Source: a virus
Lineage: Duplodnaviria > Heunggongvirae > Uroviricota > Caudoviricetes
DNA: 64,000 nucleotides
Direction: 5' to 3' (one strand)
IMG/VR virus record: IMGVR_UViG_3300042894_001948
Shown here: piece by piece, positions 53,929 to 55,802 of the stretch
Numbering within the stretch: position 1 is the first letter of the stretch
Layout: every line of letters begins with the position of its first letter
The notes under the pieces: generated by a model
Told to the model about the DNA's origin: nothing
The model's input: only the letters and a program-made list of their open reading frames with translations
The model's database searches: none
Program-made: the position numbers and the translations under genes

Positions 53929-54765
53929 ATGAAAATTCGAGAAATCACAACAAATCTTTATGAAGCACCTACATTTGGTCAATCACTTGATAGTGCAGTA
54001 ACTGCAGGAGCAAATCGGTTAAGAAATGCAGTAGGCGGTCCTTCTACACCTAACAAGTTTGATGTAATTATTAAAAAATTAAAAAACACAACATATTGTG
54101 TAATTTTTATTAAACCAATTGCTGACTATTTTATGAATATGAATCATTGGGAAGAAGTTTTAAAAGATAAGCCTGCAGATCTTGAGCAACGAAGACAAAT
54201 AGAGCGCGGTTATTTAATTACCGAGTTAGCTACAATTGCAGGTACATTAACCATGGGTGATGTTGGTATATTTCTCTTGTCTGAATTATTTGGATTTATA
54301 CCAATTATAGGACCACTCCTAGGCAGAATATTTAAAACATTAGGTCCTGCTGTTCAAGCAGCTGCTATGTTATGGTTGTCGTCAGATGCAGGAAGAATTG
54401 CAATTAGTAATTTATTAGCTACATTAGTAGACGTAAAAATTGAAGATGTTCCTGGTTACGGATCAGATATCATTGATATGTTTAAGAAAGGGTTTGAATG
54501 GGCAAAGCAACATGTAGAACAAGGGTATCACGATATAACTACACCTGCCGATCCAAATGCACCAAAGCCAGACGCAGGAAAAACAGATACCCCAGCAGAT
54601 CCAAACAGCCCATGGGCAATTAAACCAGATACACCTCCACCGCCTAAAAAACAGCGTCTTGATCCATCTCAAATGAAACAAATTGTAGCACCAACAGACG
54701 ACAGTGCATACAGAACATGGGATAGAGTTACTAGAGATGCAAATGGTAAACTACAATTAAAGTAA
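53929..54765 (+). CDS. Hypothetical late protein with hydrophobic central helices and a Pro-rich tail
   Basis: 278 aa; AAGGA RBS; segment YLITELATIAG..MLWL. Confidence 0.8.
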   Translation: MKIREITTNLYEAPTFGQSLDSAVTAGANRLRNAVGGPSTPNKFDVIIKKLKNTTYCVIFIKPIADYFMNMNHWEEVLKDKPADLEQRRQIERGYLITELATIAGTLTMGDVGIFLLSELFGFIPIIGPLLGRIFKTLGPAVQAAAMLWLSSDAGRIAISNLLATLVDVKIEDVPGYGSDIIDMFKKGFEWAKQHVEQGYHDITTPADPNAPKPDAGKTDTPADPNSPWAIKPDTPPPPKKQRLDPSQMKQIVAPTDDSAYRTWDRVTRDANGKLQLK

Positions 54766-54999
54766 CGGCATTCGAGAAACTTTAGTTAATTCAATATTGT
54801 CTTTAACAATATCATACATAATATCGCGATCTTCAGGTCCTAGTGAATATAGAAGATCGTTGATATTTATACCTCCTCGCATATACCAACATAGTCTATA
54901 AAGTTCAAGTTTAAACCGTTTAACTTCATTATCGAGCCTAATTAGATATTTTATAATATCATTGCGAGAAAGTCTAATTAGGCGGCTGCGAAAAAATTT
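54757..54999 (-). CDS. Unannotated frame downstream of the gp26-like gene (gp51-like / frameshift extension)
   Basis: 80 open codons KFFRSRLIRL..LYRLCWYMRGGININDLLYSLGPEDRDIMYDIVKDNIELTKVSRMPLL; first ATG only at 54882. Confidence 0.7.
   Translation of the reverse strand, partial: KFFRSRLIRLSRNDIIKYLIRLDNEVKRFKLELYRLCWYMRGGININDLLYSLGPEDRDIMYDIVKDNIELTKVSRMPLL
54936..54996 (-). promoter_or_regulatory. Candidate programmed -1 ribosomal frameshift signal
   Basis: T TTT TTC heptamer (54996-54990), 6 nt spacer, 10 bp stem GCCTAATTAG/CTAATTAGGC. Confidence 0.65.
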
Positions 55000-55802
55000 G
55001 CTTGATCTAAATCAATTGATAAACTTATTGCATGTCCGCATGCGGCACATTTAACGTTAACATCAGGAACTTTCCAAACTTCTTTATTTTTATTAAATTG
55101 ATCACGTATTTTGTCAAATACGTCTTTATCACAATTAGTTAACCATTCAAAAATAAAATTAGGTTCAGTAACTACCACTGTTCCGGTGTCAACTGATTCA
55201 ATACTAGCAGAATATATATCATTTTGCAAATTACCTAAATCCTTAAACAGATCAGCAATAATTTGTTTTTGTTCTTCGTCTGATTTACCTGCAGTTGCAC
55301 CTAATTGTTGTTGTAATCTCATATTACGAATAGAAAAATCAGTTGTTTGCTTGTACGTTAGTGGTTGCAATTTAATTGTTAACGTGTTATAACTAATTTC
55401 GTTATCATACTTGCATTTTGCAAAATGATCAACTACTGTAGTTAAATTAACGTCATAGTCGTTTTCTTCTCCGCATTTGTCGCATACGTTTGTAATTTCT
55501 AAAACGTTTCCAAACGTTGCAATTCGAATTGCAACTAATAACAAATCAGAATCTAATGAAGTTACTTCCCAACCATTTTTAACAGATGGGCAACAACTTT
55601 CAATAATTGAAACCGTGCTCTTACCAGATATTAATGCATCTGGAGTTTTAATAATTATTTCATCCATGCCTGTCATGCTATAAATTGGCATATGAGATAC
55701 ATCGCCTGATAATGTTCCTAATTTATTGTAAATGCCACCTGACGGTAATGAAATAAACACTTTTGGTTGTCTGTAATATTGTTGTAAAGGATTTTGAGCC
55801 AT
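54978..55802 (-). CDS. gp26: Baseplate hub / tail assembly chaperone, gp26-like
   Basis: NPL..YYRQPK.FISLPSGG; DEII.KTPDAL.SG; two CxxC pairs (CDKC, CAAC). Confidence 0.7.
   Translation of the reverse strand: MAQNPLQQYYRQPKVFISLPSGGIYNKLGTLSGDVSHMPIYSMTGMDEIIIKTPDALISGKSTVSIIESCCPSVKNGWEVTSLDSDLLLVAIRIATFGNVLEITNVCDKCGEENDYDVNLTTVVDHFAKCKYDNEISYNTLTIKLQPLTYKQTTDFSIRNMRLQQQLGATAGKSDEEQKQIIADLFKDLGNLQNDIYSASIESVDTGTVVVTEPNFIFEWLTNCDKDVFDKIRDQFNKNKEVWKVPDVNVKCAACGHAISLSIDLDQANFFAAA

Follow-up and report, generated by a model that had tools for sequence, protein, structure and literature searches.

A lake-water metagenome sequence of 64,000 nucleotides from the tailed-phage class Caudoviricetes (IMG/VR record IMGVR_UViG_3300042894_001948; "the window" below means this whole stretch) carries, on its minus strand, a gene whose product belongs to the family of the phage T4 baseplate-hub assembly proteins gp26 and gp51, and comparison of this gene with its relatives suggests, at a probability of about 0.88, that programmed −1 ribosomal frameshifting at T_TTT_TTC is the best explanation of the way the gene ends. 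Two products are predicted from it. Standard decoding would yield a 274-amino acid (aa) short form, and a shift at the heptamer would join residues 1-271 of the 0-frame protein to 77 residues from the −1 frame in a 348-aa fusion with the junction ..QANFF|RSR... An earlier reading made from the letters alone, here called the sequence-only reading, had predicted both products, and translation bears out their lengths and the junction peptide.

In the mechanism envisaged, most ribosomes would read ..N-F-F-A-A-A and then meet the stop codon. A stem-loop 6 nucleotides downstream would resist unwinding and cause some ribosomes to pause on the heptamer, where both tRNA-Phe could re-pair one base back, from UUU-UUC to UUU-UUU, after which reading would resume at CGC (Arg) and continue for 77 more codons. 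The resulting long form would be the minor product, with its first 271 residues in common with the short form and a three-helix C-terminal domain of its own. The two forms would correspond to T4 gp26 and gp51 and act together in hub and tape-measure assembly, in the manner of lambda G/GT. The analysis establishes the signal and its conservation, the coding constraint on the −1 frame and the paralogy of genes 26 and 51; that ribosomes slip, how often they do so and that both forms work as chaperones in this phage are inferences.

At its 3′ end the gene reads GCA AAT TTT TTC GCA GCC GCC TAA, and in the 0 frame the slippery sequence has the register X_XXY_YYZ. Past the spacer, whose 6 nucleotides fall within the 5-9 of a canonical cassette, GCCTAATTAG (54983-54974) pairs without mismatch with CTAATTAGGC (54945-54936), and a further A-U pair lengthens this stem from 10 to 11 base pairs (bp). 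The gene end, heptamer, 6-nucleotide spacer and 10-bp stem had all been picked out in the sequence-only reading and are present where it placed them (Table 1), as is the −1 frame that it found missing from the program-made list of open reading frames (ORFs). Bounded upstream by a TGA, that frame is open for 7 codons ahead of the shift point and ends at the TAA at 54759-54757. The ORF list has just a 41-aa ATG-started remnant of it (54757-54882), because the first start codon in the −1 frame is codon 37, the M of WYMRGG, which is also the sole ATG, GTG or TTG before codon 58 of the extension. The 212 nucleotides that separate the gp26-like gene from the convergent gene are wholly filled by the extension. 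Two other elements proposed with the cassette are indeed there in the sequence and are best taken as incidental: A_AAT_TTT, a second heptamer overlapping the first, is shared by no more than 28 of the 65 distinct homologous loci, and an inner ATATT/AATAT hairpin within the stem is absent from the minimum-energy fold and is not conserved.

Table 1. Features of the frameshift locus and its flanking genes, in window coordinates
Feature	Position	Strand	Basis or remark
gp26-like gene, 0 frame, short product 274 aa (P0001)	54978-55802	minus	PF12322, phrog_150, AlphaFold model
Slippery heptamer T_TTT_TTC (X_XXY_YYZ, 0 frame)	54996-54990	minus	read directly and from conservation
Spacer GCAGCC, 6 nucleotides	54989-54984	minus	read directly; helix of relatives starts 4-6 nucleotides past the heptamer
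Stimulatory stem-loop (predicted), 11 bp	5′ arm 54983-54973; 26-nucleotide loop 54972-54947; 3′ arm 54946-54936	minus	
−1 frame extension, 77 codons and stop (P0002: RSRLIR...WYMRGG...SRMPLL)	54757-54990	minus	begins by re-reading C54990
Convergent 278-aa gene, 3′ end overlapping the end of the extension by 9 nucleotides	53929-54765	plus	ORF list
1395-aa neighbour, divergent from the gp26-like gene	55867-60054	plus	gene order only

The short product, P0001, is on the strength of profile matches and a structural model a gp26-like baseplate-hub assembly chaperone of the gp26/gp51 family PF12322. It matches PF12322 (T4_baseplate) over residues 61-261 with an expectation value (E) of 1.1e-14 and 55.1 bits against a curated cut-off of 24.5, and phrog_150, 'baseplate hub', with E 1.8e-15. 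Its AlphaFold model (predicted local distance difference test score, pLDDT, 88.5; predicted template modelling score 0.82) matches in BFVD a 'Baseplate hub assembly protein, bacteriophage T4-like' with a template modelling score of 0.90 and E 4.5e-22, one of 68 matches at E <= 0.001. A Foldseek search of the model against the PDB and the Swiss-Prot AlphaFold models gave no match at E < 0.3; rows for the zinc-finger chaperone ZPR1 and for Hsp33 were non-significant (probability <= 0.16) and nothing was drawn from them. Two CxxC pairs and the FF of the C-terminal motif ..D..FF (C107, C110, C252, C255, F270 and F271) do not vary across the 58 sequences compared. A T4-type portal is also encoded in the window (PF07230, E 9e-105). 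The closest cultured relatives of the gp26-like protein, at 23-31% identity, are from jumbo myophages, among them Sinorhizobium Phosso, Klebsiella RaK2, E. coli 121Q and PBECO4, Xanthomonas XaC1, Agrobacterium Atu_ph07 and Pseudomonas PA5oct, and the closest uncultured one, at 84% identity, is encoded on a 372-kb contig with terminal repeats.

Conservation of the shift site carries most of the argument. The loci fetched were 80 from IMG/VR (35-84% identity) and 4 from isolates, which left 83 usable jumbo-type loci with 28-84% protein identity, and 79 usable loci came from a further scan that started from cyanophage-type proteins. T_TTT_TTC is in frame in 83/83 of the former, in 79/79 of the latter and in 8 further isolates. 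Among nine more jumbo isolates, five carry TTTTTTCG, PA5oct carries TTTTTTCA and three, RsoM2USA, Xoo-sp13 and RAS14, have T_TTT_TTT instead of T_TTT_TTC. Cyanophage S-WAM1 and Cronobacter phage LPCS28 (Straboviridae) have T_TTT_TTC_G, and Agrobacterium phage OLIVR5 has T_TTT_TTC with T as the next base. All 79 cyanophage-type loci have T_TTT_TTC_G with a stop one codon on and a 63-67-aa extension, and a 0-frame stop lies within 1-11 codons of the slip site in all relatives. In Ralstonia phage RsoM2USA (locus L175, ~1466-1476) the slip site is a run of nine T (GTTTTTTTTTCC), and given the length of this run polymerase slippage could contribute there.

Codon usage offers a measure of how far this departs from the demands of the protein. 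With 81% of the Phe codons in these genes being TTT and 19% TTC, TTT-TTC would be expected in ~16% of loci and is observed in all 66 distinct ones. The codon before the Phe pair is of 7 kinds and specifies 6 amino acids, every one of them ending in T; 14 different codons, for V, A, E, D or G, follow the heptamer in the 0 frame, each beginning with G (54989 in the window), and this invariant G makes the first codon of the −1 frame an invariant Arg (CGN). The constraint around the heptamer is on nucleotides and not only on protein, with synonymous positions frozen. Alignment of homologues had been suggested in the sequence-only reading as a check on the heptamer, spacer, stem and −1 frame upstream of MRGG; the heptamer and the frame prove to be conserved and the stem, where present, to keep its spacing, and in ~170 loci no homologue was found that lacks the slip site or has a stop between it and MRGG.

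The predicted stem-loop was assessed in 60 distinct 77-nucleotide segments, in which the window helix corresponds to columns 14-24 with 51-61. Its pairing is possible in 78% of cells, against 66% after shuffling and 19-54% when partners are slid by 1-3 columns, and both sides of a pair have changed in 74 cells where 31.5 are expected, a number that 0 of 500 shuffles reach. An uninterrupted helix of at least 9 bp that begins 4-6 nucleotides past the heptamer is present in 75% of 64 distinct loci, compared with 4.3% of control positions in the same genes. RNAalifold run on all 60 segments returned no single consensus structure because the position of the 3′ arm differs among clades, and the assessment therefore used the helix of each locus and counts of pairs for the window's structure. 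In several clades (L054, L055, L056, L077, L083 and L084) the 5′ arm is fixed with the 3′ arm placed elsewhere, which argues for selection on structure rather than sequence.

The −1 frame is under coding constraint. Its extension past the slip is 76-77 codons long in the uncultured loci and Phosso, 70-82 in the other jumbo isolates (70-71 in RaK2, 121Q and XaC1) and 63-67 in cyanophages, and its sequence is conserved from residue 1 through R-x-x-L-(I/L)..., L-(V/I)-R-L-(D/E), F-K-x-E-L-F-R-I-S-W-Y-M-R-G-G and E-D-R. In 61 sequences W35, M37, R38, G39 and G40 are invariant. In the relatives the frame has no upstream start, because it opens just 2-22 codons before the slip; in 35 of 65 distinct loci there is no ATG, GTG or TTG before extension codon 30, and the 73-codon extension of PA5oct is without any canonical start codon. 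A Shine-Dalgarno-like core precedes Met37 in only 7 of 61 loci. The M-R-G-G codons of the window, ATG CGA GGA GGT (54871-54882, minus strand), place a GGAGG core downstream of the ATG. Modelled alone, the extension has a pLDDT of 88.8 with helices at 9-36, 43-49 and 52-71, the first of them entirely upstream of the only Met. Foldseek of the 77-aa model against BFVD found nothing at E < 1, and P0002 had no match among PHROG and Pfam profiles. A 1912-nucleotide contig from a lake metatranscriptome library, spanning 54500-55813, differs from the window by four substitutions in the extension; in the −1 frame two of them are silent and the others give D>E and V>I. Stretches that the RNA-library contigs do not cover were left out of the evidence.

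T4 itself provides a telling contrast. The end of its gp26, K-E-F-F-E-L-L, is spelled GAG TTC TTT GAG across the FF, so the two Phe residues are kept in a sequence that is not slippery, there is no extension, and gene 25 directly follows gene 26. Gene 51, divergent from gene 26, encodes another PF12322 protein, gp51, in which the domain takes up residues 1-201 (E 3.9e-52) and is followed by a C-terminal tail of ~48 residues; genes 26 and 51 are paralogues. Whole-record searches of 7 complete genomes that carry the slip site yielded a single PF12322 gene apiece, against two in T4. The Pfam and PHROG profiles provide the informative test of how the tail relates to the extensions. The profile phrog_634, 'baseplate hub assembly catalyst', matches the T4 gp51 tail (E 8e-11) and the extensions of S-WAM1 (E 2e-30), OLIVR5 (E 5e-8) and LPCS28 (E 3e-10), and all four match the same positions of it. 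By eye, the T4 tail and the cyanophage fusion run collinearly, with 23 and 24 residues respectively from FF/VF to the Y-S-L motif. The proposal that the gp26/gp51 pair is encoded here by one frameshifted gene gains support from gp51 being a PF12322 paralogue and from these shared phrog_634 positions. Both T4 proteins are listed as hub assembly chaperones, with gp51 absent from the particle (Leiman et al. 2010, PMC3004832). The case in the window supports a view of T4 gp26 and gp51 as a single chaperone in a short and a long version.

For the clade of the window the link to the gp51 tail is made in steps. Comparison of the window-type with the RaK2-type extension gave P 3.8e-6, of the RaK2-type and other jumbo isolates with the gp51-type P 4.4e-4, and of all jumbo types with the gp51-type P 0.004, the segment aligned each time being ..DLL-YS-x-EDR-x-x-MY-x-I with YSL-x-ELE-x-MMPWERDVYV-x-LL. 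With single-sequence T4 gp51, hhalign of an extension alignment (A3) gave a probability of 6% and aligned the wrong region; alignment A1, compared with gp51 or gp26 each as a single sequence, was no more sensitive. Homology of the extension in this clade to the gp51 tail is, on such alignments, suggested weakly and transitively.

Several observations weigh against ribosomal frameshifting as the explanation. The extension of the window's clade has no direct hidden Markov model match to the gp51 tail. The energy of the stem in the window, −12.8 kcal/mol over 75 nucleotides, has a z of −0.8 relative to other segments of the same gene, its helix being A/U-rich and not of unusual stability, and about a quarter of loci have no clear helix by the simple measure used. 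The 11-bp uninterrupted helix of the window exceeds, at its spacing, the 99th percentile of the pooled controls (10 bp), and one control position in the window's own gene likewise reaches 11 bp; the case against mere chance rests on the comparison with relatives. As to initiation, an ATG overlaps the stop in some relatives (ATGA in Phosso, TAATG in 121Q), and a near-cognate codon (ATT, ATA, ATC or CTG) is in the −1 frame of every locus. Together with the Met at residue 5 of cyanophage extensions, these would suit a separate small gene whose frame is translated alone, by termination coupling or from a non-canonical start, to give a protein of ~8-9 kDa, or one of 41 aa from the ATG of WYMRGG. 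A small ORF is what GenBank has for Phosso, 121Q, XaC1, GAP32, Serratia BF and others, but the annotated starts vary between relatives and, in XaC1, cut into conserved sequence, conservation begins at the Arg codon right after the heptamer, and canonical starts and Shine-Dalgarno-like cores are scarce, as noted above, with no canonical start at all in PA5oct. Moreover, independent translation gives the frozen synonymous sites of the heptamer no role, and the homologous tail of T4 gp51 is fused to a PF12322 domain. A separate gene is accordingly considered improbable.

Slippage of RNA polymerase, adding one U at the T6 run with the consequence that some mRNAs encode the ..NFFRSR.. fusion in a single frame, is considered slightly less probable still. 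Its attraction is that the conserved element is a homopolymer run, which extends to nine T in RsoM2USA and to T7 in three isolates, and its product would be indistinguishable by mass spectrometry from that of a ribosomal slip. Against it, the X_XXY_YYZ register, the invariant C and G and the covarying helix 4-6 nucleotides downstream are features of ribosomal slippage, and six T is short for efficient slippage by a bacterial polymerase. The lake metatranscriptome contig keeps T6 with no indel at the run, a mild argument keeping in mind that an RNA library could contain DNA and that contigs hide rare variants, T6 being the dominant sequence there. The third alternative is a sequencing error in the homopolymer, to which some chemistries are prone at T6 runs, or decay of a single long gene to a pseudogene; with identical T6C in the same register in ~170 assemblies and isolates obtained independently, separate lake contigs from DNA and from RNA libraries in agreement with the window, and a 0-frame stop within 1-11 codons everywhere, comparative data effectively refute this. 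All three alternatives combined retain a small share of the probability, and programmed −1 ribosomal frameshifting at T_TTT_TTC is the explanation adopted in what follows.

The tape-measure-like identity that the sequence-only reading gave to the 1395-aa neighbour is putative and comes from gene order: the gene lies between the gp26-like and gp20 portal genes, a place at which RaK2-like phages encode a virion structural protein with a tape-measure-like annotation. No Pfam or PHROG match was found for the protein, with its halves also scanned against PHROG, and BLASTP against RaK2 ORF088 and T4 gp29 found no similarity. It is twice as long as the protein at the same position in RaK2, and around residues 680-720 has K/P/E/V-rich tandem peptide repeats (PKAEVKPEVKPVEP...). 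Between the two divergent genes (55803-55866) metatranscriptome contigs end at 55813 or 55789 and restart at 55861 or 55940, a gap seen at contig level in both lake libraries, which are from the same study, and spanned by DNA contigs; it is consistent with a divergent promoter region. In lake DNA run X9 a low-depth contig skips 87 nucleotides in the gp26-like gene (55019-55107), and there are also contigs with a 3-nucleotide deletion at 55823; both are probably strain variants or other phages. Downstream of the locus, at 52185-53234 on the plus strand, are a PDDEXK/RusA-like resolvase and RNase H, and the corresponding region of Phosso encodes RNase HI and a Holliday junction resolvase, which extends the shared gene order beyond the chaperone gene. 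Elsewhere the minus strand of the window has two giant ORFs, at 8180-18469 (3429 aa) and 24107-37168 (4353 aa).

The public records examined all mis-annotate the locus, with the extension left as intergenic DNA or entered as a small hypothetical protein and one gene described as a metal-transporting ATPase, and no slippage annotation was present in the GenBank records among them. That one gene is the gp26-like gene of Yersinia phage fHe-Yen9-04 (L173, 689-1564), labelled 'Lead, cadmium, zinc and mercury transporting ATPase; Copper-translocating P-type ATPase', evidently a mis-annotation caused by the CxxC motifs. A corrected model, one gene with two products, is of use for a conserved tail-assembly gene. 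The phages 121Q, PBECO4, RaK2, PA5oct, S-WAM1 and LPCS28 offer cultured systems for following how the short and long forms are balanced and what that balance does to the assembly of hub and tail, and the natural variants of the stem-loop constitute a ready series for the study of stimulators of slippage on U_UUU_UUC.

The sequence-only reading took the arrangement to be new, and in this it seems to have been anticipated. A direct literature search found no report of a gp26/gp51-type frameshift or of a jumbo-phage case, and the lead came from the text of the PRFect paper, which cites Vladimirov et al. 2022 for T4-like phages in which a short gene is accompanied by a longer fusion gene (PMC10885494); a 2025 paper cites the same work for poly-T slippery sequences in the N-terminal tail assembly chaperone (TAC-N) genes of T4-like phages (PMC12846349). 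To judge from these citing papers, the frameshift principle for T4-like phages seems already to have been published (Vladimirov, Gautam & Davidson 2022, Virology 566:9-15), and the case in the window is therefore rated as one more, unannotated example of it. A wider joint reading is put forward tentatively, with the odds somewhat against its holding in full. Canonical ribosomal −1 frameshifting with a covarying stem-loop whose 3′ arm relocates may be the general and probably ancestral route to the short and long hub chaperones of phages with T4-like core genes, from cyanophages and some Straboviridae to jumbo phages of the RaK2/121Q/PA5oct/Atu_ph07 type, T4 genes 26 and 51 then being a derived duplication; the freshwater jumbo clade would have a distinct, longer extension domain with invariant W-x-M-R-G-G; and hundreds of GenBank and IMG/VR records would mis-annotate the extension as a small gene or intergenic DNA. 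The three parts jointly would be new if the published account covers only the T4 two-gene arrangement and a few frameshifting relatives.

Among known systems the nearest is the T4-like gp26/gp51 case as conveyed by the papers citing Vladimirov et al. 2022: the same family, a short form and a long one with its tail after an FF/VF motif, and a poly-T slip site. T4 has no slip site and makes its two proteins from two divergent genes, whereas the window and its relatives have one gene and a frameshift; the WYMRGG-type extension of the window's clade, which has 77 aa and begins with a long helix, exceeds the gp51 tail in length and resembles it only weakly. The likeness to lambda G/GT drawn in the sequence-only reading holds for the logic of one gene with a short and a long product, and does not extend to kinship: no tail assembly chaperone Pfam family matched P0001 (E <= 0.01) and its model had no PDB match, so that there is no relation in sequence or fold. 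By analogy with lambda-type chaperones, whose N part binds the tape measure and whose C part binds the tube protein, the forms in this phage may do likewise. The −1 frameshift in lambda gpG/gpGT is reportedly a conserved feature of tail assembly chaperone genes. Its heptamer is G_GGA_AAG, different from the T_TTT_TTC of the window, and a lambda-type chaperone gene is flanked by the tube and tape-measure genes, all on one strand, whereas the gene in the window diverges from its putative tape-measure-like neighbour. The E/E+E′ products of phage P2, also said to arise by frameshifting, are of an unrelated protein family, and their gene is directly upstream of the tape-measure gene; P2 is nevertheless a myophage too, and the −1 frameshift in its tail chaperone gene likewise uses a poly-T heptamer, T_TTT_TTG.

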